Shown here: in pieces, positions 3,883 to 46,552 of the stretch
Position numbering within the stretch: position 1 is the first letter of the stretch
Layout: each line of letters begins with the position of its first letter
Source of the DNA: a bacterium
GTDB taxonomy: Bacteria > Planctomycetota > UBA11346
Length of the DNA: 60,740 nucleotides
Assembly: GCA_020047915.1 (NCBI GenBank)
Contig: JAIFND010000039.1
Span: 1 to 60,740 of the forward strand
Direction of reading: 5' to 3'
The notes under the pieces: model-generated
Told to the model about the DNA's origin: nothing
What the model saw: only the letters and a program-made list of their open reading frames with translations
The model's database searches: none
Translations under genes and position numbers: made by a program

Positions 3883-3969
3883 TGGTGCGCGGGGGGGGAC
3901 TCGAACCCCCACGAATTTTACTTCGCTAGCACCTCAAGCTAGTGCGTCTGCCAATTCCGCCACCCGCGC
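3883..3969 (-). tRNA. tRNA-Leu (anticodon GAG), class II with a long variable arm and encoded CCA.
   Basis: Reverse complement is GCGCGGGTGGCGGAATTGGCAGACGCACTAGCTTGAGGTGCTAGCGAAGTAAAATTCGTGGGGGTTCGAGTCCCCCCCCGCGCACCA. Anticodon stem is CTAGC/GCTAG and the loop is TTGAGGT. Confidence 0.9.
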
Positions 3970-16775: not shown

Positions 16776-17327
16776 TCATGCCTTCGCCGTCAGCACGCAG
16801 CATGAACCGCCACTCTTGGCCGAGCGGTTCCACGGCAGGCGGGCGACCAGCAGGGCGAGCGGGCACAGGTCGGTGATGCCGGCCATCAGCAGACCGCCAC
16901 CGAAGAACGCGCTGATCACGGCGAACCAGGGATCGACGGTCAGGGCGAGGATCGCGCCGGTCAGCACCCCGGCTCCGATGATGCTGCGCACCTGGCGCTC
17001 GACGCCGAAGACCGCGCCGCCCGAGCCGTCGATCGGCAGTCCGGCCGCCTTCCAGGCATTGGTCCCGCCACTGATGTCGATCAGTTCGCCGAGGCCGGCG
17101 GTAGCCAGCTTCTCGCACGCTTGACGGCTGCGCACCCCGCTTTGGCAGATCACATGCACCGGGCCGCTGCCGAGACTGGCAGCGTCCAACGCATCAAGGG
17201 GCATGCTGCGGGCGCCAGGAACATGGCCGGCCGCGTATTCAGCCGGGGTGCGGACATCGATGAGGTTCAGCGGACCGGCCTTGAGGCGGTCGCTCAGGGC
17301 GCGCGGGTCAAGTGTGGTGATGGGCAT
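16776..17327 (-). CDS. Rhodanese-domain inner-membrane protein (YgaP-like: rhodanese plus DUF2892).
   Basis: LIDVRTPAEYAAGHVPGA, active-site loop VICQSGVRS, and a C-terminal two-helix membrane domain. Confidence 0.8.
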   Translation of the reverse strand: MPITTLDPRALSDRLKAGPLNLIDVRTPAEYAAGHVPGARSMPLDALDAASLGSGPVHVICQSGVRSRQACEKLATAGLGELIDISGGTNAWKAAGLPIDGSGGAVFGVERQVRSIIGAGVLTGAILALTVDPWFAVISAFFGGGLLMAGITDLCPLALLVARLPWNRSAKSGGSCCVLTAKA

Positions 17328-17409
17328 GGCCGCGAGGGATAGCACGCGGATGTGTCAGGTATACCCGCACCAGCCATTCCTTCGGCACGCCCTGCCGCAT
17401 CATGCCGCC

Positions 17410-19311
17410 ATGCGCGTCCTGCTCGCCCTGCTCCTGCTGACCAGCCTGATCGCCGAGGAATCCTTCTTCTCGCGCCACGGCGTCACCGTCTCGGTGGAAC
17501 TTGAGACCACGGCCGATGGCCCGGTGATCGCGGCGACCTTCCAGCCGCGGCCGCAGGATCCTCCGCTGCATCTCTACGGCATGGGCCTGACACCGGGCGG
17601 GGCCGGCGTGCCGACCAACCTGCGCCTGGCGCCCGGATCGCCGGTGCGCGCGCGCGGTCCGCTGCGCGACGACCAGCCGGTGCACGACCTCGATGGCCTG
17701 CCGGTCTATCCCGATGGCACGGCGGTGACGCTGCGTCTGCCGATCAGCGCGCCGGCGGGCAGCGGCGAGATTCCGGTCGAGGTGCGCGTCTCCTACATGG
17801 CTTGCACCGCCGAGGCCTGCCTGGTGCCGGTCAACGATGCACCGTTGATCCTGCGCGTCCCGGGCGACGGATCTGCACCCGCGGCCGTAGGGGGCGGCGC
17901 CGCGCTCGACGATATCCGCGCCGTGATCCGCGAGGAGTTGGCCGGGACGCAGGCCAAGCTGCGCGCCGAACTGCGGGCCGAGCTGGCGGCTGCCGCAGAG
18001 CCACATGCGATCCGTTGGCGCCGTCCCGCCGACCGCGCCGCCGCCGAGGCGCTGATCGCCGAGGCGCACGCCGCCGGCAAGGCGGCGATCCTCGACTTCA
18101 CCGGCCCGAGCTGCATCAACTGCCTGCTCATGGCCAAGACGGTGTTCCGGGTGCCGGCGGTGGCGCGGGCGTGGAACAGCGGCGTGCCGATCGAGATCGA
18201 CACCGACCCGCCGCACGAGGATCTCGCCGCCTGGCAGCAGGAGCGCTTCGCCACCCAGAACCGCCCGCTCTACATCCGCATCGCACCGGATGGCAGCGAG
18301 GTGCGCTGGGACCGCGTCTTCGATCCTTCCGACACCGCCACCCTCGAACGCCTCGTCGCCCTCCTCGAACGCGGCGAGAGCGCCGCCGGCGATGCGACCG
18401 GCACCGGCTCGGGGTGGGGCGAGTTCCTGCTGCTCGCCGTGCTCGGCGGGCTGTTCACCTTGGTGATGCCGTGCACCTACCCGATGATCCCCTTCACCGT
18501 CAACATGTTCACCAAGCAGGCGGCAGGCGGAGCGAAGCTGCTGCCCCTCGCGGCCGCCTATGCCCTGGGCATCATCGCCTGCTTCGTCGGCCTGGGCGTG
18601 CTGATCACCGGCGTCTTCGGCGCCTCGCTCACCACCCTGGCCGGCCACCCGATCACCAACCTGCTGATCGGCGTCCTCTTCGTCGTGCTCGGCCTGTCGC
18701 TGCTCGGCGCCTGGTTCCTCACCCCGCCGAGCTGGCTGCAGAACGCGGCCGGCGGCGCGCGCGGTGGTTACTTCGGCGCGCTGCTGATGGGCCTGACCTT
18801 CGCCATCACTGCCTTCACCTGCACGGCCCCCTTCGCCGGGGCGGTGCTGGCGGCCGGCGTCGCGCACGGCGCGTGGGGATCGGCCGTGCTCGGCATGGCG
18901 ATCTACAGCGGCACCATCGCCCTGCCCTTCTTCCTGCTCGCCCTCGCTCCCGGCTGGCTGGCGCGACTGCCGCGCGCCGGGGCATGGATGAATGAGTTCA
19001 AGGTGGTGGGCGGGCTGGTTGAGATCGCTGCCGCCTGCAAGTTCCTCGCCATCTGCGACCATGCCTGGGGCTGGGGTATCATCGGACGCACCTTCTGCCT
19101 GGCGAGCTGGAGCGCCATCGCCCTGGCCATCGCCGCCTATGTCCTCGGCTGGTGGCGCCACGACGGCGATGAGAGCATCAAGCACGCCGGCCTCGGCCGG
19201 CTGAGCGCCGCCATCATCTGCGCCGCCCTGGCGATCTGGCTGGCGTCAGGCTTGGCCGGCAACCATCTGGGATTGATCGAGAGCTTCTTCCCGGGTGATG
19301 CAGCGCCGTAG
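17410..19311 (+). CDS. DsbD-like thiol:disulfide interchange protein with permuted domain order (alpha-like, thioredoxin-like, then transmembrane).
   Basis: Signal peptide MRVLLALLLLTSLIA, alpha-like YMACTAEACLVP, Trx-like ILDFTGPSCINC, and a DsbD/CcdA TM core with LVMPCTYPM and AFTCTAPF. Confidence 0.8.
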   Translation: MRVLLALLLLTSLIAEESFFSRHGVTVSVELETTADGPVIAATFQPRPQDPPLHLYGMGLTPGGAGVPTNLRLAPGSPVRARGPLRDDQPVHDLDGLPVYPDGTAVTLRLPISAPAGSGEIPVEVRVSYMACTAEACLVPVNDAPLILRVPGDGSAPAAVGGGAALDDIRAVIREELAGTQAKLRAELRAELAAAAEPHAIRWRRPADRAAAEALIAEAHAAGKAAILDFTGPSCINCLLMAKTVFRVPAVARAWNSGVPIEIDTDPPHEDLAAWQQERFATQNRPLYIRIAPDGSEVRWDRVFDPSDTATLERLVALLERGESAAGDATGTGSGWGEFLLLAVLGGLFTLVMPCTYPMIPFTVNMFTKQAAGGAKLLPLAAAYALGIIACFVGLGVLITGVFGASLTTLAGHPITNLLIGVLFVVLGLSLLGAWFLTPPSWLQNAAGGARGGYFGALLMGLTFAITAFTCTAPFAGAVLAAGVAHGAWGSAVLGMAIYSGTIALPFFLLALAPGWLARLPRAGAWMNEFKVVGGLVEIAAACKFLAICDHAWGWGIIGRTFCLASWSAIALAIAAYVLGWWRHDGDESIKHAGLGRLSAAIICAALAIWLASGLAGNHLGLIESFFPGDAAP

Positions 19312-19550: not shown

Positions 19551-20486
19551 CTAATTGCTGCCGGCGAGGACCCCGTACACGGTGTCGGGCATGGCCTTGG
19601 CCAACGCGGCCATGCCGTCGCGGCCAGCGGCCTGTTCCTTGGGTTTGCTTGAACCGGTCAGGCGCTTGCACTCCATATAGACCGAACGCGCTTTCAGCTC
19701 CTTCTTGATGACCGGGTCCTTGCCGAGTTCCGACAGGCGGCTCTTCAAGGCCTTGAGATCAAGACCGTCGAAGCGGCGGGACAGCCCCTCCAGCTTCTCG
19801 TAGGCCGCGAAACCTTCGCCTGCGGCAGCCAGGCCAGCCTCCAGCGCAGTGGTCGCCGAGGTGATCACCAGTTGGGACTGCTCGCCGACCGCGTTCTTGC
19901 GCTTGGCGGCACCGACCAATTCCTTGAGCGCCCCGGGCACCAGCCCGCGGTTGGCCTTCCACCACACTTCGATGACCCCGGCCTCGGTCAGGCCCTCGAC
20001 CGGGATGGCATGGGTGCCACCGGTCAGTCCCTTGAGGAAGGGCAGGGGCTTGCCCTTGCCGTAGGTTTCAGCCGTGCTGACGGTCTGCAGCGTGCCGTCA
20101 GGCTTCAGCAGTTCCGTCCACATCGTGGTCTTCTTGCCGACCCCGTTGGGATTGTTCGGGTCGTAGGCGCCGAGCGTGCGCTCGATGCCCTTCGACTTCA
20201 GCAGATCGGCCATCGCCTGCGGCTCGAAGTGCGGCGAGGTGACGATCACCCACACCGGCACCTTCTCCTTCTCAATCCAGTCCACCGCTTCTTTGACGCC
20301 CTCACCGAGGGACGCGACGCAGTGGGGTCAATGACCCGAGAATTGGTAGAGGAGGACGTGCTGTCCGGCGAAATCGGCGCTCGTACGCGAGACGCCGTCG
20401 CTGAACTGGAGCCTGGCGATCGGGTCGGCGGCGGCTAAGAAGCCGGCGACGACCAGCGCGAGACAGAGTCGGGCGAATATGGCCAT
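19551..20486 (-). CDS. Secreted thioredoxin-fold (TlpA/redoxin-like) selenoprotein with an in-frame TGA (Sec) at 20328-20330 in a U-P-H-C redox motif. Merges track ORFs 20328..20852 (C-terminal part) and 19551..20285.
   Basis: Reads MAIFARLCLALVVAGFLAAA...GQHVLLYQFSGH-TGA-PHCVASLGEGVKEAVDWIEKEK... in one frame. WCxxC-type context, SECIS-like hairpin 15-34 nt after the TGA, and selD/selA adjacent. Confidence 0.7.
20296..20315 (-). promoter_or_regulatory. Candidate bacterial SECIS stem-loop for the TGA at 20328-20330.
   Basis: mRNA is UGA-N12-GCG[U]CCCUC-GGU-GAGGGCGU: an 8-bp stem with a bulged U on the 5' side and G/U in the apical loop, at a spacing close to the E. coli fdhF SECIS. Confidence 0.5.
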
Positions 20487-20640
20487 ATATCGATTATGGA
20501 CAGCACGCCGACCAAGACAAGAAACAACCCGCCTCGTATCGCACGCCCGTGCGGGTAGCGCCAGACGGGGATTTGAGCCGCATGCCGATCGACTAGGGTC
20601 CGCCATGCCCGCCATCAATCTGCCCCGCCGCCGTGAAGTC

Positions 20641-22356
20641 ATGAAGCGCTCGATCGCGCTCGGCCACTGCATCTGCGATCCGCGCCTGGGCTGCCCCTGT
20701 CCGACCCTGAAGAACGAGGACCGCTGCCCCTGCGCCGGCGAAACCGCGCCGGAACCACCCGCCGATGCCGTGATCCGGCTGACCCAGAGCGTCAAGGCGG
20801 CGGGCTGCGGCGCCAAGATCGGCAAGGCGCAACTCGCGAGCCTGCTCGGCAACCTGCCGGTGATCGATGATCCGCGCGTCCTGATCGGGTCGGCGGCCGG
20901 CGACGATGCCGCCGTGCTGCGCCTGGACGGGTCGCGCGATGACCTGGTGCAGACCGTCGATGTGCTCTCGCCGCCGGTCGATGATCCCTACAGCTACGGC
21001 CGCATCGCCGCCGCCAACGCCCTGTCCGACATCTGGGCGATGGGCGGCCGCGCGGAATGCTCCCTGTCGGTGGTCGGTTGGCCGATGCACGACCTACCGC
21101 CCAGCGCGCTGGCCGAGGTGCTGCGCGGCGGGGCCGAGGCGATGCGCGAGGCCGGCGTGCCGGTGGTCGGCGGGCAAAGCGTCAACGCCGCCGAACCCTT
21201 CGCCGGCTACAGCGTCACCGGCACCGTGGCCGCCGGGCGCGCGATCCGCAATCAGGGCGCGCAACCGGGCGATGTGCTGGTGCTGAGCAAGGCGCTGGGC
21301 GGCGGGTTCCTGGGGTTCGCGCAGCAGATCGGCCTACTCGCGCCCGAGCACCTCGCCGCCTGGACGGCGCAGATGGCGGCCTTCAACCGCGCCGCCGGCG
21401 AGGCCATGGCGCGGCATGGCGCGCATGCCGGCACCGATGTGACCGGCTTCGCCCTGCTCGGCCATGCGATCGAGATCGCCATGCGCTCGCCGTGCGATCT
21501 GGTCATCGATTTCGATCGCCTGCCGATCCATCCCGGCGTCCAGGACCTGGCCCGCCGCGAGGTGTGGCCGGGAGCCCTGGAGCGCAACCGCGAGGCAGTC
21601 GCGCCCGAGCGCCTTGACCTCGCCGGTCTGAGCCCCGCCCAGATCGCCGTCCTGTTCTGCCCCGAGACCTCGGGCGGCATCCTCGCCTTCCTGCCCGCCG
21701 ATGCGGTGTTTGGCTACCGTGCCGACTGCGCCACCGCCGGGGTGGCGACCAGCGTGATCGGCGAGGTCGTGGCCGGCACCGGGCGCATCCGCGTCACCAC
21801 CAGCGATGCCGCCGCGTGGTCGCCGCTGGGCATCCCGAAATCTAAGGCTCCGGCGCCGACCGCCGCCAAGCTGGCGGCCATGGAAAAAGCTGGAGGCTGG
21901 AAGCTGGAGGCTGGAAGCGTGGCCATCCAGGACCTCGCTACCATCGCAGATCCTGCACATCGCCTCGCCACTGCGATCGCCGCCGCTCCTCCAGCCTCCA
22001 GCCCCCAGCCTCCAGCCCTCCTCCCCGAGACACCGTGCTGCGCCGAACCGCCCGCCACGGCCAACGCCATGGCCCCGCTGCCTACCGTCAGCGGCCTGCC
22101 GCCCGCCGCCGCTGCAGCGGCCTTCACCGCCTACATGCAGGCGGTGACCGCGCCGGGCGCCCTCGACGCGCGGACCAAGAAGCTGATCGCGCTGGCCCTG
22201 TCGGTGGCCGGGCGCTGCGAACCGTGCGTCGGCATCAACGCCGAGGGCGCGCAGAAGGCCGGCGCCGACCAGGCGCAGATCGCCGAAGCAGTGGCCCTGG
22301 GCATCGCCTTCGGTGGCGCCCCGACCGCGATGTTCTACAACGGCCTGCGGAAATAA
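20641..22356 (+). CDS. selD: Selenophosphate synthetase SelD (Cys form) with a Cys-rich N-terminal extension, fused through a repeat-derived linker to a C-terminal AhpD/carboxymuconolactone-decarboxylase-like CxxC domain. Alternative start at 20605.
   Basis: IRLTQSVKAAGCGAKIG, DDAAV, FGRIAAANALSDIWAMGG-type motifs. No stop until 22354-22356. C-terminus ALSVAGRCEPCVGINAEGAQKAG is an AhpD-like core. Confidence 0.85.
   Translation: MKRSIALGHCICDPRLGCPCPTLKNEDRCPCAGETAPEPPADAVIRLTQSVKAAGCGAKIGKAQLASLLGNLPVIDDPRVLIGSAAGDDAAVLRLDGSRDDLVQTVDVLSPPVDDPYSYGRIAAANALSDIWAMGGRAECSLSVVGWPMHDLPPSALAEVLRGGAEAMREAGVPVVGGQSVNAAEPFAGYSVTGTVAAGRAIRNQGAQPGDVLVLSKALGGGFLGFAQQIGLLAPEHLAAWTAQMAAFNRAAGEAMARHGAHAGTDVTGFALLGHAIEIAMRSPCDLVIDFDRLPIHPGVQDLARREVWPGALERNREAVAPERLDLAGLSPAQIAVLFCPETSGGILAFLPADAVFGYRADCATAGVATSVIGEVVAGTGRIRVTTSDAAAWSPLGIPKSKAPAPTAAKLAAMEKAGGWKLEAGSVAIQDLATIADPAHRLATAIAAAPPASSPQPPALLPETPCCAEPPATANAMAPLPTVSGLPPAAAAAAFTAYMQAVTAPGALDARTKKLIALALSVAGRCEPCVGINAEGAQKAGADQAQIAEAVALGIAFGGAPTAMFYNGLRK
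21889..22024. repeat. Inverted tandem-heptamer element F1. (GCTGGAR)x4 at 21889-21918, 66-nt spacer, (CYCCAGC)-type arm at 21985-22024. Lies inside the selD ORF.
   Basis: gctggaggctggaagctggaggctggaagc ... gctcctccagcctccagcccccagcctccagccctcctcc. Translated in frame as AGGWKLEAGS ... APPASSPQPPALLP. Confidence 0.85.
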
Positions 22357-22360
22357 CCGC

Positions 22361-23734
22361 ATGGACACCGACCTGCTGCGCCGCATCCCAGCCGCCGGCA
22401 CACTGCTTAACCGACCGCCGGTGCAGGCCTTGGTGGCCGCGCACGGCCACGGCCTGGTGCGCCACTGCCTGCGCCTGCTGCTCGACGAGCTGCGCGCCGC
22501 CGCCAAGGCCGGTTCAACACCGCCCGCCGCCGAGGAGCTGGAGCGCGAACTCACCGCGCGCGTCCGGCGCATCGCCGTGCCCGCGCTGCGCCGCGTGGTC
22601 AACGCCAGCGGCGTGCTGCTGCACACTGGCCTGGGCCGCAGCCCATTGTGCGATGAGGCGGTGGCGGCGCTGACCGCAGCCGCCGGCTACAGCGCGGTGC
22701 AGGCCAGCCTGGGCAGCGGCGACCGCAGCCTGCGCGAAGAACGTATCGAGCGCATGCTGTGTGAGCTGACTGGCTGCGAAGCGGCGACCGTGGTCAACAA
22801 CAACGCCGCCGCGACCATGCTGATGCTCGCGACGCTCGGAGGCGGCCGCGAGGTGGTGGTGTCGCGCGGCCATCTCGTCGAGATCGGCGGCAGCTACCGC
22901 ATGCCCGATGTCATGGCCATGAGCGGCTGCACCCTGGTCGAGGTCGGCTGCACCAACCGCACCCACCTGCGCGACTACGAACGCGCGATCACCCCGCAGA
23001 CCGCCGCGCTGCTGCATGTCCACACCAGCAACTACCGCATCCGCGGCTTTGCCGGCACGCCCGGCATTGCCGAGCTGGCGGGCCTGGCCAAGGCCAAGGG
23101 CGTGCTGGCCCTCGACGACATCGGCAGCGGCGCGCTGGTGCCGCTCTCCACCGTCGGGGTCGAGGACGAACCGCTGGTCGCAGCGAGCATCGCAGCCGGG
23201 GCCGAAATCGCCTGCTTCAGCGGCGACAAGCTGATCGGCGGCCCGCAGGCCGGCATCCTGGTCGGCAGCCGCGCCGCCATCACCCGCCTGCGCGCCAACC
23301 CCTACGCGCGCATGTTCCGCGTCTGCAAGCTGACCCTCGCCGCCCTCGAGGCGACCCTGGTGCACTACCTCAACGGCACCTGGCGCGAGGCCATCCCGTT
23401 CTGGGCTATGGCCTCGCGGCCGGCCAGCGAGATCGCTGCCGACGCTGCGGCCCTGGCGGCGCGCTGCGCCGACATCTCCGGCCTGCGGGCGCGGGTAGTC
23501 GAAACGGTGGCCTTCGTCGGCAGCGGTTCGGCGCCCGACGAGGGCATCGCCAGCGCCGGACTGCGCCTGAGCGCCGTCGGCATCGAGGCCGGCGAGCTGG
23601 CCAGACGCCTGCGCACCGGCGAACCAAGCGTTTTCGTGCGCCTTGAGGACGGTGCCTGCATCGCCGACTGCCGCACCCTGCGCCCGGGTGACGCCGAGCA
23701 GTTGCTGGCGGCTCTGCGTCGGGCGATGGGGTGA
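22361..23734 (+). CDS. selA: L-seryl-tRNA(Sec) selenium transferase SelA.
   Basis: N-terminus MDTDLLRRIPAAGTLLNRP, body VNNNAAATMLML...FSGDKLIGGPQAGILVG (PLP Lys region). Starts 5 nt after the selD stop. Confidence 0.9.
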   Translation: MDTDLLRRIPAAGTLLNRPPVQALVAAHGHGLVRHCLRLLLDELRAAAKAGSTPPAAEELERELTARVRRIAVPALRRVVNASGVLLHTGLGRSPLCDEAVAALTAAAGYSAVQASLGSGDRSLREERIERMLCELTGCEAATVVNNNAAATMLMLATLGGGREVVVSRGHLVEIGGSYRMPDVMAMSGCTLVEVGCTNRTHLRDYERAITPQTAALLHVHTSNYRIRGFAGTPGIAELAGLAKAKGVLALDDIGSGALVPLSTVGVEDEPLVAASIAAGAEIACFSGDKLIGGPQAGILVGSRAAITRLRANPYARMFRVCKLTLAALEATLVHYLNGTWREAIPFWAMASRPASEIAADAAALAARCADISGLRARVVETVAFVGSGSAPDEGIASAGLRLSAVGIEAGELARRLRTGEPSVFVRLEDGACIADCRTLRPGDAEQLLAALRRAMG

Positions 23735-23737
23735 TGG

Positions 23738-23829
23738 GCTGGAAGCTGGAAGCTGGAAGCTGGAAGCTGGAAGCATGATCCATCCACGGCTTCTCGTTCC
23801 TGTCGCCCCTCCAGCCTCCAGCCTCCAGC
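23738..23829. repeat. Inverted tandem-heptamer element F2. (GCTGGAA)x5 at 23738-23774, 33-nt spacer, (CCTCCAG)x3 at 23808-23829. Fills the convergent selA/pmbA gap.
   Basis: Read directly. Each unit carries an A-versus-G difference, so the pairing is uninterrupted (G-U) only in a minus-strand transcript. Confidence 0.88.
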
Positions 23830-23834
23830 GTCCC

Positions 23835-25205
23835 CTACACCGCCACCATAGCGTGCATACGCATCCACTCGGGGCCGTGCCAGCCGCCGACGGTGGCGAC
23901 TTCGCGGCTGAACGAGGCGCCGGTCATCGCCTCGCGCAGGACGCCCGACACGCTGCCGCCCTTCACCGCGATGCGTGAGCCATCGGGGGCGTTCCACCAG
24001 CCGAAGCGGATCTCGCCGGAGAAGGCGCCGGTGTCGTGGCGCGGATGGAACTCGCTGAAGCGCACCACCTCCAGCGAGCCGTGGCGCAGTTCGGCGGCGC
24101 CATGCCGGCCGGGCGGGGCGACCAGGGTGGCGAGCTGCCCGCGCGGCTGGCGCTCAAGCACCTGCATCCAACGCCCGGCACCGTGCAGCGCGGTCAACAC
24201 GCCGTCCTGGATGAAGTCCTGGCGGCAGGCGGCGTAGCCGTGCTCGTCGAAGCGGTAGGCGGCGAGGCTGGGGACGATCGCATCGCTGCTGAGATTCAGG
24301 CGGTCGCCGCCGCACGGCTCGACCACCGGGGCGTCGAGGGTCAGCGCGGCGATGTTGCGCACATGCTGGGCGGCATCGGCATGCGCGGCGTACCAGCCCA
24401 TCAGCCCGGCCAGATACTCGCCGCCGATCAGCACCGGCAGGCGGCCGGCTGGCGGCGGACCCGCCGCAGCACCGTCGCGCAGGCAGTCGGCGGCGTCGGC
24501 GACGCGCTCGGCCAGGCGCAACTCGCCCAGTGAGGCTGCCTCACAGCGGTCGTAGTATTCGCTCTCCTCGCCGTTGGCGCCGCGATGCAGCAGCACGAAC
24601 TCGGCGTAGCAGCGCGTGCGCCGCTCGGACAGGTCGAGGCCACGGTGGTTGACCAGGCGACGGTCGTCGATGCTGGCGAACAGCTCCAGCGCACTCGGTC
24701 GCGTCCACGGTGCGGCATGCACCGCATCGCCGAACAGGGCGATGTTGCCATGCAGCGCCTGGCCGGGATCGCGCGTGATCTGCTGGTCGGCGAGGAAGTC
24801 GGTGGCGGTGGCCATCTGCGCCCCGGTAGCGGCGCCACCGGCGACGTTGCAGGCGACCACGCCACCGCGCCAACCCGCCGCAGCGCCATTGTCACCCGGA
24901 CCGGGCAGCTTCCACGCGCGGTTGGGCGCCGACTGCGCGCTGGTCACCGCGGCGTCCAGCAGCACGCGCAGGTCGGGGCCGCCATGCACCGGCGTGACGG
25001 TGAAGCCAGCCTCGCCCTGCGTCCCATCCGGGTTCGGCGGCAGGGCTATCCACACCTGCCAGCGCACCGACGAGGCCTCGCGCTCGCTCTCGGGCTTGAG
25101 GAAAGTGAGATAACGCTCGAAGCGGCGGCTGCGCCGTTCGGTCACCTGCCACTGGGCGATCTCCGAGCGGCCAGCGAGGACATTCTGGATGAGGCGCAGG
25201 TCCAT
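23835..25205 (-). CDS. pmbA: PmbA/TldE-family metalloprotease partner.
   Basis: TldD/PmbA-family length and position. The start ATG shares one base with the tldD TGA (TGATG at 25203-25207). Confidence 0.78.
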   Translation of the reverse strand: MDLRLIQNVLAGRSEIAQWQVTERRSRRFERYLTFLKPESEREASSVRWQVWIALPPNPDGTQGEAGFTVTPVHGGPDLRVLLDAAVTSAQSAPNRAWKLPGPGDNGAAAGWRGGVVACNVAGGAATGAQMATATDFLADQQITRDPGQALHGNIALFGDAVHAAPWTRPSALELFASIDDRRLVNHRGLDLSERRTRCYAEFVLLHRGANGEESEYYDRCEAASLGELRLAERVADAADCLRDGAAAGPPPAGRLPVLIGGEYLAGLMGWYAAHADAAQHVRNIAALTLDAPVVEPCGGDRLNLSSDAIVPSLAAYRFDEHGYAACRQDFIQDGVLTALHGAGRWMQVLERQPRGQLATLVAPPGRHGAAELRHGSLEVVRFSEFHPRHDTGAFSGEIRFGWWNAPDGSRIAVKGGSVSGVLREAMTGASFSREVATVGGWHGPEWMRMHAMVAV

Positions 25206-26596
25206 CAGGCCACCACCGCTTTCAGGCGCAGGGCCGGTCCGCCGTCCGTCACCTTGACCCACTCCTTGTAGCCCTTGCCGCACATGCCGAGGCTGGCCTC
25301 GACCACCTCGCGGCCGACGCCGCTGACCGACTGCAGCAGGCGCGGCACCGAGCCAGTGACGACAACCGGACTGAAGACCTTGCCGGTCAGGCGACCGTCG
25401 ATGATCTCCTCCGCCATCGCGCCTTCGAGCTGGATGCCCCAGCCCTTGGGGTCCTCCATGCCGTTGCTGGGATGGGTGAGGAAATAGCCGCGCCGCACCG
25501 CACCGATGAGCTGCTGCGTGGTCGCATCGCCCGGCCCGAAGAAGGTGTTGGTCATGCGCGTGTAGGGCTTGTGGTCGTAGCTTTCGCGCCGGCCGTTGGC
25601 GGTCTTGGCGACCTGCTGACCGCGACGGGCCAGTTCGGCCTGGCTGTGGCGGTCATTGAGCCCGGCGACCAGCACGCCCTTCTCGACAATACGCGTCGGA
25701 CTGGCGAGCACGCCTTCGTCGTCGAAGAAGTAGGACGCGGCCCAGCCGTTGCTGGGATCGTCGTACATATCGACCAGCGGCGAGGCCACCGGTTTGCCGA
25801 GGAACTCGGCGCCGCGCGCGCGGTCCTTGAGGAAGAGGTCCTGTTCGGTGCCATGGCCGAAGGCCTCGTGCGCGAAGATGCCGGCGAAGTGCCCGTCGAA
25901 CACGCACTCGTGCTCGCCGGGATCGGGGATGCGCGGGGCACCGAGGATGCGCGGACCGTCGCGCACCACCTCGGCCGCGACCGCTGCCGGATCGGCGAGG
26001 CGCTCCCAGCCGCCGATCGCCTCGCGGCCGTGGTGCAACTGCGCCTGCTGGGCGCCATCAGCGAAGATGCCGAGGCAGACCTGGCGCACGCGGTGCAGAC
26101 GCTGGTGCATCTGGCGGGTGCGATCGACGTACACGACCTCGGCGTGCACATCGCCGACCATGCCGACCGCCTCGCGGCAACGCGGACCAGCCAGCACGGC
26201 GGCGCGCAGGGCGCGGGCCGCCTCGATCTTGGTTGCGGCCGACAGGCTGCGTGGGTCGTGCTGCATCGGCTGCTCGAAACGGCGTTCGAGGCGGTCGAGC
26301 GATTCGATGCGACGCTCCCAGTCGACATGCGCATGGCGCACCCGGTCGGCCAGACGATGCGTCGCCTCGCGCACCGCTTCGGGACTGGGATCGTCGCTGC
26401 TGATCTCCAGGAAGCGGTCGCCGGTCCACGCCGAGAGGGTGAAACCGGCCTCGGGCGGCAGCGGCTGGCACGACACCGAGGCGCTGTCGACGCGCACCTG
26501 GGTGCCGGCGTTGCGCCGCGCGTAGGCGCTGGCGTTGGGCGCCAGGCGTTCGAGCGTCGCGACGGCGGTGGCGAGGGCGGGGATGAGGCTGTCCAC
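25205..26596 (-). CDS. tldD: Metalloprotease TldD.
   Basis: HEAFGHGTEQD zinc motif and the TldD family pattern throughout. GTG start at 26594-26596. Confidence 0.88.
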   Translation of the reverse strand: MDSLIPALATAVATLERLAPNASAYARRNAGTQVRVDSASVSCQPLPPEAGFTLSAWTGDRFLEISSDDPSPEAVREATHRLADRVRHAHVDWERRIESLDRLERRFEQPMQHDPRSLSAATKIEAARALRAAVLAGPRCREAVGMVGDVHAEVVYVDRTRQMHQRLHRVRQVCLGIFADGAQQAQLHHGREAIGGWERLADPAAVAAEVVRDGPRILGAPRIPDPGEHECVFDGHFAGIFAHEAFGHGTEQDLFLKDRARGAEFLGKPVASPLVDMYDDPSNGWAASYFFDDEGVLASPTRIVEKGVLVAGLNDRHSQAELARRGQQVAKTANGRRESYDHKPYTRMTNTFFGPGDATTQQLIGAVRRGYFLTHPSNGMEDPKGWGIQLEGAMAEEIIDGRLTGKVFSPVVVTGSVPRLLQSVSGVGREVVEASLGMCGKGYKEWVKVTDGGPALRLKAVVA

Positions 26597-30989: not shown

Positions 30990-31222
30990 GCTGGCATGTT
31001 CAGCGTCCATCGCCCCGGACCAAGCTGGCGGATTGCCCGTTCCATCCCGTGTGTGAAAGACGACGGGGATGGTGATGGTTGCGTATCCGTTCCAACCACT
31101 ATCGTCCGCCCCCGCACAGCTGGACCCCGGGAGCAGGAAGCCTCCGAATCTGGTCAGGCCTTGACGGGAGCAGCCATAAGGTGGCGGCCAGCGTCCCGGG
31201 TCATCTGGCTGTGCATTTCTCC

Positions 31223-46457: not shown

Positions 46458-46552
46458 GCTGGAGGCTGAAGGCTGGAGGCTGGAGGCTCCCAGCCACCCG
46501 CCGACAGGTCCCGCGGCCCCCAGCTTCCAGCCTCCAGCTTCCAGCCTCCAGC
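46458..46552. repeat. Inverted tandem-heptamer element F3. (GCTGRAG)x4 at 46458-46487, ~32-nt spacer, (CAGCYTC)-type arm at 46520-46552. Lies between a small ORF and sppA.
   Basis: gctggaggctgaaggctggaggctggaggc ... ccagcttccagcctccagcttccagcctccagc. Confidence 0.88.

Follow-up and report, generated by a model that had tools for sequence, protein, structure and literature searches.

Bacterial selenoproteins are mostly thioredoxin-fold proteins with a UxxC or CxxU motif, and the hairpin of the E. coli fdhF type is a known bacterial SECIS element. The closest annotated relatives of the protein described here are planctomycete proteins of the TlpA disulfide reductase/redoxin family (PF08534/PF00578) of ∼330 aa, for example ResA of Anatilimnocola aggregata (P0171). 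ResA, TlpA, CcmG/DsbE and the M. tuberculosis DsbF/DsbE proteins resemble it in predicted fold, in export and in the placement of the redox motif at helix α1. A similar architecture, a thioredoxin-like domain followed by a C-terminal helical domain, is found in NCBIfam NF041382 (VPGUxxT thioredoxin-like (seleno)protein type 1). Sec-containing peroxiredoxin (Sec-Prx, TxxU) is another known selenoprotein type (PMC13188914, Table 1). We analyzed a planctomycete DNA stretch of 60,740 nt (hereafter the window) in which a TGA codon on the minus strand is very probably, judging from the sequence comparisons below, the selenocysteine codon of a secreted thioredoxin-fold redox protein. The features of the locus are listed in Table 1.

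Table 1. Features of the predicted selenoprotein gene and the adjacent selenium genes (window coordinates).
Feature	Position	Strand	Basis
Predicted selenoprotein CDS, 311 codons including Sec53, plus stop TAG (19553-19551)	19551..20486	-	translation
Residues 1-20, forming a predicted Sec-type signal peptide cleaved after AAA	20427..20486	-	inspection and hydrophobicity
Predicted thioredoxin-fold (TlpA/ResA-like) domain, about residues 24-160	20007..20417	-	AF2 pLDDT 85.5, Foldseek, hhalign
Putative Sec-UGA codon (codon 53)	20328..20330	-	column shared with the TGA of 13 further sequences and with TGC/TGT (Cys) of full-length homologues
Cys56, +3 partner of Sec53 (U-P-H-C)	20319..20321	-	shared arrangement in relatives
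Core of the predicted SECIS hairpin, with 3 bp and 5 bp on either side of the bulged U (20312) and a GGU apical loop (20306-20304)	20296..20315	-	fold and comparison
Predicted extended SECIS stem-loop, lower stem CACUGC/GCGGUG around the core	20283..20324	-	MFE fold
Conserved all-α C-terminal domain, about residues 161-311, 8 predicted helices	19554..20006	-	AF2 pLDDT 94.6
selD (Cys form), sharing its reading frame with an AhpD/CMD-like domain	20479..22356	+	TIGR00476 (314 bits), PF00586, PF02769, PF02627
selA (selenocysteine synthase)	22313..23734	+	PF03841 (403 bits), PF12390

The initial annotation described two ORFs on the same strand and in the same frame, parted only by a TGA, and translation of the minus strand confirmed this: the frame runs from the ATG at 20486 to the TAG stop with the TGA at codon 53 as its sole interruption, and the ORF list holds it as the pieces 20328..20852 and 19551..20285. 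Read-through around the TGA gave ...DFAGQHVLLYQFSGH*PHCVASLGEGVKEAV..., with the residues ...YQFSGH-U-PHCVASLGEGVK spanning codon 53, and the joined protein sequence quoted earlier matches this translation exactly. Homologues cover the joined protein at 93–100%, and the N-termini of the full-length ones are consistent with a start at ATG 20486. The N-terminus (MAIFARLCLALVVAGFLAAA, with D following the predicted cleavage site) showed on inspection a basic residue, a hydrophobic core (residues 7–20, mean Kyte-Doolittle 2.7) and an A-x-A site. N-termini of the same kind in the homologues agree with the signal peptide proposed for this protein; the AF2 model renders the region as an N-terminal helix at low confidence.

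The TGA occupies one alignment column in 14 sequences, which are the window, 12 close-family loci and one locus of a TlpA-like branch (L001, L004-L010, L025-L027, L084 and L087). The TGA-bearing homologues are spread over several sub-clades, and the TGA keeps its column down to ∼35–50% identity. Proteins P0003-6 and P0014 and dozens of representatives carry Cys there; no other Cys of the family is near-universal, and a Pro follows this one. A neighbor-joining tree placed the Sec forms scattered among Cys forms. Among syntenic orthologues, one Cys form (L085) and two Sec forms (L006 and L084) lie behind the same upstream gene of 373 aa, which is 82–93% identical between these loci and absent from the window. 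As the initial annotation had claimed, the TGA takes the place of the first Cys of the motif: the Cys of full-length homologues, which are single proteins and not two genes, aligns at this position in the family and profile alignments, and the predicted fold is ResA-like. Of the 38 codons upstream of the TGA compared between the window and L008, 14 are identical, 12 differ synonymously and 12 non-synonymously, and both flanks of the TGA are, by such comparison, under purifying selection. The retention of the TGA at its column in 13 further sequences, together with the constraint on its two flanks, is taken to put the split-gene observation beyond chance.

The residues around the column vary. 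The window protein reads S-G-H-U-P-H-C (UxxC); its nearest relatives are mostly C-G-H-U-P (CxxU) or C-G-H-C-P, with the partner Cys at −3 and not at +3. The +3 partner is present as well in L007 and L008, in the Cys-only proteins P0016, P0042 and P0047, and in the TlpA-like branch (CPxC). Some members contain one Cys without a partner (S-G-x-C-P-x-A).

Additional loci were sought with pattern and profile searches. A first metagenome scan with the family alignment as query returned no loci, and a second scan with the exact TGA-plus-hairpin pattern returned one additional locus (L084). A degenerate TGA-plus-hairpin pattern run against GTDB genomes gave 57 matches, essentially all of them chance hits in high-GC genomes, with L001 as the only family member. 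When the window was crudely scanned for additional in-frame TGAs in coding-like sequence, an off-frame artefact and an ordinary gene boundary were the only results; the real case escaped the filter on account of its short upstream coding part, so the scan does not speak against further cases.

The core hairpin downstream of the TGA has the sequence GCG-U-CCCUC-GGU-GAGGG-CGU and begins 15 nt downstream when counted from the first base of the TGA codon, or 12 nt past the codon's last base. It forms an 8-bp stem with the 3-nt GGU loop located 21 nt after the UGA (ΔG −9.7 kcal/mol), and it conforms to all four constraints of the published bSECIS consensus model (PMC13188914, section 5). No other stretch of the gene is as codon-invariant as the hairpin (five of seven codons invariant vs. 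10.8% gene-wide), and the bulged U of the hairpin is invariant. Across nine distinct Sec forms, pairing reached 94.4% with three compensatory pairs, compared with 44–60% in slid controls. In Cys forms the hairpin is absent, with 1–4 of the eight positions paired and ΔG of −3 to −4. The SECIS-like hairpin with bulged U and GGU loop reported at this distance from the TGA is thus upheld by its agreement with the bSECIS model, its covariation in Sec forms and its loss in Cys forms. The comparison supports the core alone, as the lower stem could not be aligned across sub-clades; RNAalifold on close Sec forms likewise recovered only the invariant core. The local RNA fold energy was modestly better than that of shuffled sequences (z −1.65), as expected at 69% GC. 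Rfam scans at gathering and permissive settings matched no SECIS family and gave only a chance sRNA match. The stem sequence is unrelated to that of the E. coli fdhF-type SECIS, and the SECIS of L087 differs from that of the window in its GUU loop and its distance of 16 nt from the UGA.

Foldseek comparison of the predicted thioredoxin-fold domain gave ResA as best match (3c71, E 2.6e-5, TM to target 0.70), followed by DsbF, CcmG and PrxQ; the probability was 1.00 for ResA, DsbF and CcmG. The AF2 model places the redox motif at the N-terminal end of helix α1. Identity to ResA, TlpA, CcmG and DsbF is 15–17%. The window protein differs from them in having Sec for Cys and an extra helical domain of 150 residues. 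The WCxxC context ascribed to the motif by the initial annotation stands for the first-Cys position and falls for the Trp, which is missing before the motif in the window protein, unlike in these proteins. TlpA-like proteins typically have a cis-Pro loop; inspection of the alignments did not reveal one here, the expected position reading N-I-x-Q-T in relatives.

Homology to the planctomycete TlpA family extends over the full length (hhalign A1 vs. A8, 99.7%, E 5.3e-26, 277 columns) at ∼19% identity. Both share the signal peptide, the thioredoxin fold, the C/U-P-x-C column and the C-terminal helical domain, and a profile search from the window family reached annotated TlpA-family proteins. In the alignment to the TlpA-family profile, the window U falls on the leading Cys of CPRC, the position at which TlpA/ResA-like redoxins (cd02966) have the first Cys of their canonical CPxC. 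The motifs themselves differ, being F-S-G-H-U-P-H-C in the window protein and F-F-E-E-x-C-P-x-C-x-x-x-W-P in the planctomycete TlpA-family proteins. The TlpA-like branch has a Sec form too (L087, FFEEG-U-PRC), and Sec/Cys pairs occur there.

No Pfam or NCBIfam model reached threshold on the window protein (Pfam E ≤ 0.01; NCBIfam E ≤ 0.1), the Pfam AhpC-TSA model remaining below its cut-off (15 vs. 26 bits, E 0.024). By description, the catalogued thioredoxin-fold UxxC selenoproteins are of the same kind, with Sec at the nucleophilic position and the SECIS in the coding sequence. However, their domain models do not recognize the window protein, and its sister clade is CxxU with the Sec at the same column. 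HUIPC (NF047660), WAxxUGC (NF041054), TUGYCR (NF053656) and SaoT (NF040730) gave no match to the window protein and only weak ones to a few distant relatives. NF041382 did not match it either, the highest score among its relatives being 43.8 bits where the cut-off is 350, and the motifs differ (S-G-H-U-P-H-C vs. V-P-G-U-x-x-T); the C-terminal part of this model (profile positions ∼200–348) was matched by 35 of the 122 family representatives. A PDB sequence search with the family profile found nothing significant. The C-terminal domain carries the conserved motifs WW..RG, KPKEQAAGRD and P.T.YG. The statement that these ∼150 residues belong to no recognizable family holds for Pfam, where no match was found, and for PDB folds (best E 0.73), and needs amending in that the domain is homologous to the C-domain of the planctomycete TlpA-family redoxins. 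Fold matches to GST-C, BamD and TPR-like proteins were weak and were rejected as not meaningful.

The neighboring genes are in line with the initial annotation, which had placed selD divergent from the selenoprotein gene and selA close by. The true start of selD is probably at 20605 or 20641. Neither selB (among the ORFs scanned) nor tRNA-Sec was found within the 60.7-kb window.

The sequence evidence gives strong support to decoding of UGA53 as selenocysteine through a SelB-type SECIS hairpin located within the coding sequence; Sec-tRNA would be made by the genome itself, with selA and selD adjacent. The signal peptide would take the protein across the cytoplasmic membrane. In the alignment and the predicted model, Sec53 occupies the N-terminal end of helix α1, where CPxC proteins have their nucleophilic Cys. 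Sec53 would attack an oxidized substrate, which may be a disulfide, a sulfenic acid or possibly a peroxide. Cys56 would act as the resolving residue and give rise to a Sec53–Cys56 selenenylsulfide. A membrane electron shuttle might then return this selenenylsulfide to the reduced state; to name the DsbD-like protein encoded downstream as that shuttle is a guess, since its gene is not conserved beside the homologues. The helical C-terminal domain might supply substrate or partner specificity. Members with a single Cys (S-G-x-C-P-x-A) do not fit a strict dithiol–disulfide mechanism. We regard a genuine selenoprotein gene as highly likely, and such a gene combined with a general redox role as likely too. 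A periplasmic thiol/selenol oxidoreductase is our best guess for the protein, and thiol–disulfide oxidoreduction, as opposed to peroxide reduction or another activity, has roughly an even chance of being its activity.

Could the TGA be a true stop, leaving a pseudogene or a 52-residue peptide and a 244-residue protein started at GTG 20285? Gene callers split all such loci there. Yet the retention of one TGA column at such divergence with both sides under selection, the homologues that are single proteins with Cys at that position, and a hairpin specific to the TGA forms make this hardly credible; a start at 20285 would also remove strand β1, the active site and half of helix α1 of the predicted model. 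UGA-C is a leaky context in many bacteria, so that the codon could be read through, or it could be reassigned to Trp, Cys or Gly, without any selenocysteine. TGA is however the usual stop and ends 24 of the 36 genes in the window, which argues that it has not been reassigned, and the SECIS-type hairpin, the presence of selA and the classic Sec/Cys signature of the column leave this reading next to no weight.

The remaining alternatives accept selenocysteine and concern the function. The protein might be an exported peroxiredoxin-like selenoperoxidase, in which peroxide would convert Sec53 to a selenenic acid to be resolved by Cys56 or an external thiol. The local pattern [S/C]-x-x-[U/C]-P-[T/S/H] resembles T/S-x-x-C-P-T of peroxiredoxins, one-Cys family members exist, AhpC-TSA is the only Pfam hint, Foldseek matched PrxQ (5io2, E 8.5e-5, 20% identity), and Sec-Prx already provides a precedent. 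Against the peroxiredoxin motif PxxxT/SxxC/U, however, the window has S-x-x-U and lacks the Pro. A conserved Arg at the peroxiredoxin position was not seen by inspection, and at −3 most relatives have Cys rather than Thr or Ser. ResA, DsbF and CcmG scored better (TM to target 0.6–0.7 vs. 0.57 for PrxQ), and the annotated distant relatives are TlpA-type proteins with CPxC; we consider a selenoperoxidase rather unlikely. The gene also lies in a cluster with a rhodanese-YgaP gene (16776-17345), the DsbD-like gene (17203-19311), selD-AhpD and selA, and the DsbD-like protein shows weak similarity to the rhodanese/DsbD selenoprotein TsoB. These proteins could together form a module for selenium (or sulfur) acquisition or relay that handles periplasmic selenite or selenotrisulfide and not protein disulfides. 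But the DsbD-like gene, rhodanese and selD are not found beside the homologues (L002, L004-6, L008, L084 and L085 have other neighbors), Cys forms are numerous, and the closest GTDB genome, whose SelA is only 73% identical, carries family member L001 on one contig and selA (L011) on another. We therefore find such a module improbable, and slimmer still is the chance that the exported selenoprotein is the periplasmic entry point of a dedicated selenium relay encoded in the cluster instead of a general disulfide reductase; were the relay reading true, the selenoprotein would help feed its own biosynthetic pathway.

The family is new to Pfam and NCBIfam models but of the commonest bacterial selenoprotein kind, and the general picture of bacterial selenoproteins is unchanged. 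Gene callers have divided the window gene and at least 13 homologous loci from metagenomes and MAGs into a stub of 48–56 residues and a "hypothetical protein" of 230–260 residues. The joined reading restores a predicted exported redox enzyme and enlarges the selenoproteome of Planctomycetota. Its 150-residue helical C-terminal domain combines a confident predicted structure with the lack of a PDB match. The Se/S nucleophile is fixed at one column while the partner Cys is at +3, at −3 or absent. Close, syntenic relatives alternate between Sec and Cys forms, and the question of selenocysteine versus cysteine use might be studied well in such a family.

Translation of the minus strand from 20486 to 19551 gave one frame, interrupted solely by the TGA at 20330-20328 (codon 53) and read through as ...HVLLYQFSGH-U-PHCVASLGEGVKEAVDWIEK... 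The initial annotation had proposed a single redoxin gene split at this TGA, and both same-frame pieces are present in the mechanical ORF list. The N-terminus of the read-through protein is MAIFARLCLALVVAGFLAAA followed by DP; inspection supports the proposed signal peptide, with a basic residue, a hydrophobic core (mean Kyte-Doolittle 2.7) and an A-x-A site. The codon-position G+C pattern is that of the other genes in the window (G+C 69%). TGA is an ordinary stop that terminates 24 of the 36 gene-like ORFs in the window, so a reassigned genetic code does not apply here.

Features of the window and of related loci
Feature	Position	Strand	Remarks
Probable selenoprotein gene	ATG 20486 to TAG 19553-19551	-	311 residues with read-through
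Hairpin	20315-20296	-	GCG-U-CCCUC-GGU-GAGGG-CGU; 3 bp, bulged U (20312), 5 bp, GGU loop (20306-20304)
selD ORF	20479-22356	+	Cys form, G-C-G-A-K
DsbD_TM protein	17203-19311	+	702 aa; convergent with selenoprotein gene; periplasmic thioredoxin-like S-C-I-N-C (CxxC)
Rhodanese + YgaP-TM membrane protein	16776-17345	-	beyond DsbD_TM gene
Palindromic element	21889-22016, 23738-23829, 46458-46552		(GCTGGAR)n facing (YTCCAGC)n heptad repeats
PmbA/TldD-type metallopeptidase genes	23835-25283, 25205-26596	both -	adjacent
SRP RNA	31117-31214	+
tRNA-Leu(GAG)	3883-3969	-
373-aa gene, locus L085	380-1501		no Pfam family
373-aa gene, locus L006	2500-3621		no Pfam family
373-aa gene, locus L084	4270-5391	-	no Pfam family

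A search of 5.8 billion proteins returned 14 matches. Five, of full length (306-325 aa), have Cys at the TGA position, the alignment that the proposed check for Cys homologues was to look for. The other nine are fragments of 231-258 aa starting just past that point; in the DNA of all nine, an in-frame TGA occupies that column, and the sequence ahead of it encodes a conserved signal peptide and beta-strand. The Sec motif is S-[GS]-[HR]-U-P-H-C in the window and in loci L007 (94% identical) and L008 (65%), C-G-H-U-P-[TSG]-[SA] in L001, L004-6, L009, L010 and L084, and C-[SA]-[HS]-U-P in the more distant L025-L027. Cys forms (L002, L003, L085/86 and many others) read C-G-H-C-P-x-A. In L010 the stretch upstream of the conserved part (3-200) is unrelated to the family signal peptide, which could reflect a chimeric contig or a replaced N-terminus.

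Profile search of 1.84 billion representatives gave a family of 219 members. Alignment of 77 full-length members indicated that the TGA column holds the only near-universal Cys, followed by Pro; among distant members this Cys opens a canonical C-P-x-C (F-F-E-E-x-C-P-x-C-x-x-x-W-P or S-W-C-P-x-C). The position of the partner Cys varies: it is +3 in the window protein, the distant branch and representatives P0016, P0042 and P0047, and -3 in most close members, and some members have no partner (S-G-x-C-P-x-A). The one-Cys members, with no partner at -3 or +3 (P0020, P0027, P0040, P0041, P0044, P0046 and P0049), hint that a single nucleophile could suffice for the family chemistry. Many distant-branch representatives of 245-270 aa start right past the active site (P0061, P0065, P0069, P0083, P0087, P0097, P0103, P0112 and others) and may be further TGA-split Sec forms; DNA was consulted for P0219 only, through the 91%-identical locus L087.

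Comparison of the 38 codons upstream of the TGA between the window and L008 showed 14 identical, 12 synonymous and 12 non-synonymous codons, a pattern indicating that this segment is translated. The Cys form L085 and the Sec forms L006 and L084 all lie behind one 373-aa gene (82-93% identical) and are syntenic orthologues differing by Cys or Sec. In a rough NJ tree (quick distances), Sec forms are interspersed among Cys forms at at least five places. The codon pattern, the syntenic pairs and this scatter support a functional Sec/Cys exchange. The 373-aa gene stands directly upstream of both Cys and Sec redoxin forms in group-B relatives; no homologue of it was found within the window.

The hairpin past the TGA had been described as SECIS-like. 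The published bacterial model specifies a loop of 3-9 nt with G at the first two positions, an upper stem of 4-16 bp, a UGA-loop spacing of 16-37 nt and an MFE of ≤ -7.5 kcal/mol (PMC13188914); the hairpin (spacing 21 nt, dG -9.7 kcal/mol) agrees with it on all four counts. In nine Sec forms, no other run of seven codons in the gene is as codon-invariant as codons 58-64 (5 of 7 unchanged vs. 10.8% overall). Across 9 distinct sequences, divergent Sec forms included, pairing holds in 94.4% of cells for the 8 pairs, three of which have changed on both sides (G-C/C-G, C-G/U-A and C-G/G-C), and the bulged U is invariant. In a control with the 3' partners slid by 1-3 columns, 44-60% paired with at most one two-sided change pair; the Sec-form sequences are related, so this control is indicative and not a probability. 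In the three Cys-form DNAs used for comparison, 4, 4 and 1 of the 8 positions pair, and the corresponding segment has a folding energy of -3 to -4 kcal/mol. No Rfam family matched. The local fold z-score is weak (-1.65), which is unsurprising at the G+C content of the window.

No Pfam or NCBIfam model matched the window protein at threshold (best Pfam score, AhpC-TSA, 15 bits vs. cut-off 26). The AlphaFold2 model with the family alignment was confident (pLDDT 85.5). It begins with a helix of low confidence (the signal peptide), continues with a beta-alpha-beta domain of thioredoxin type, in which U lies where helix 55-74 begins, and ends in a C-terminal half made of helices. By inspection, a cis-Pro is not evident. 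The top PDB match in Foldseek is ResA (3c71, E 2.6e-5, TM to target 0.70). Below it come DsbF/DsbE of M. tuberculosis, CcmG and further extracytoplasmic thiol-disulfide oxidoreductases, with PrxQ slightly lower. The distant branch is made up of proteins from planctomycetes whose annotations name TlpA disulfide reductase, ResA or the redoxin family (PF08534/PF00578). Profile-profile alignment of the window group with this TlpA-like branch (99.7% probability, E 5e-26, 277 columns) spans both domains and pairs U with the first Cys of CPRC. Locus L087 is a Sec form of that branch (FFEEG-U-PRC, TGA at about 2935); its hairpin, GGGCC-GUU-GGCCC with the GUU loop 16 nt past the UGA, is unlike that of the window, and beside it stands a Cys form from another MAG (L088, FFEEGCPRC). 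Modelled alone, the C-terminal domain folds very confidently into eight helices (pLDDT 94.6), and a PDB fold search found no counterpart (best E 0.73). It had been called a part with no recognisable family, and the only database echo is the weak similarity of relatives (≤43.8 bits vs. cut-off 350) to the C-terminal part of NF041382, the VPGUxxT family thioredoxin-like (seleno)protein type 1.

The selD and selA genes were found as initially placed, selD divergent from the selenoprotein gene and selA 2 kb away. No tRNA-Sec or SelB-like ORF was found within the 60.7-kb window; Sec use is documented in Planctomycetes (PMC4807772). Since the first ATG of the selD ORF overlaps the selenoprotein start by 8 nt, the true selD start is probably at 20605 or 20641. 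A Cys-rich stretch, HCICDPRLGCPCPTLKNEDRCPCAGE, precedes the SelD core, and the frame stays open into an AhpD/CMD-like domain (PF02627, residues 544-618, C-E-P-C motif). Because one copy of the heptad palindrome (arms of 35 nt, 86% complementary; 13 pattern matches vs. 0 expected) sits in the linker, this apparent fusion may be a pair of genes linked by a REP-like element in which an in-frame stop is lacking by chance. The DsbD_TM protein weakly resembles the DsbD part of the rhodanese/DsbD selenoprotein TsoB (NF045694, 105 bits vs. cut-off 805). Together, rhodanese-YgaP, DsbD_TM, selD and selA have the flavour of a redox/selenium cluster.

Comparative evidence strongly supports a conserved Sec-UGA with a SECIS-type hairpin, a thioredoxin-fold protein and a nucleophile position for Sec; readings as a pseudogene, two genes or read-through are contradicted by the conservation pattern. 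After export by its signal peptide, the protein would attack an oxidised substrate through Sec53, and Cys56 would resolve the intermediate to a selenenylsulfide, which a DsbD-type shuttle could re-reduce; the helical C-terminal domain may have a role in specificity. The chief competing view of the chemistry is a selenoperoxidase of the peroxiredoxin kind. The [S/C]-x-x-[U/C]-P-[T/S] motif, the members with one Cys and the matches to PrxQ point that way; against it, the Pro and Arg signature is missing (Arg judged by inspection) and family relatives carry CPxC. Only the gene cluster of the window points to a role in selenium handling. None of the selD, selA, DsbD_TM and rhodanese neighbours is conserved beside the homologue loci checked. 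The nearest GTDB genome is a Planctomycetota MAG whose SelA is 73% identical, and there the family member is on one contig and selA on another.

UxxC or CxxU proteins with a thioredoxin fold form the most frequent type among the 119 prokaryotic selenoprotein families of a published catalogue, which includes TlpA-, redoxin- and thiol-disulfide-isomerase-like Sec families (PMC13188914, Table 1). The window gene would work like these. Its product is homologous to TlpA-family redoxins, yet every curated family model tested failed to recognise it, and it is therefore filed as a divergent, unmodelled subfamily of a known thioredoxin-fold selenoprotein type. For specialists, the interest lies in a C-terminal domain without a structural match, a partner Cys that shifts or disappears (+3, -3 or none) while the Sec/Cys stays in place, and repeated Sec/Cys switching between syntenic orthologues.
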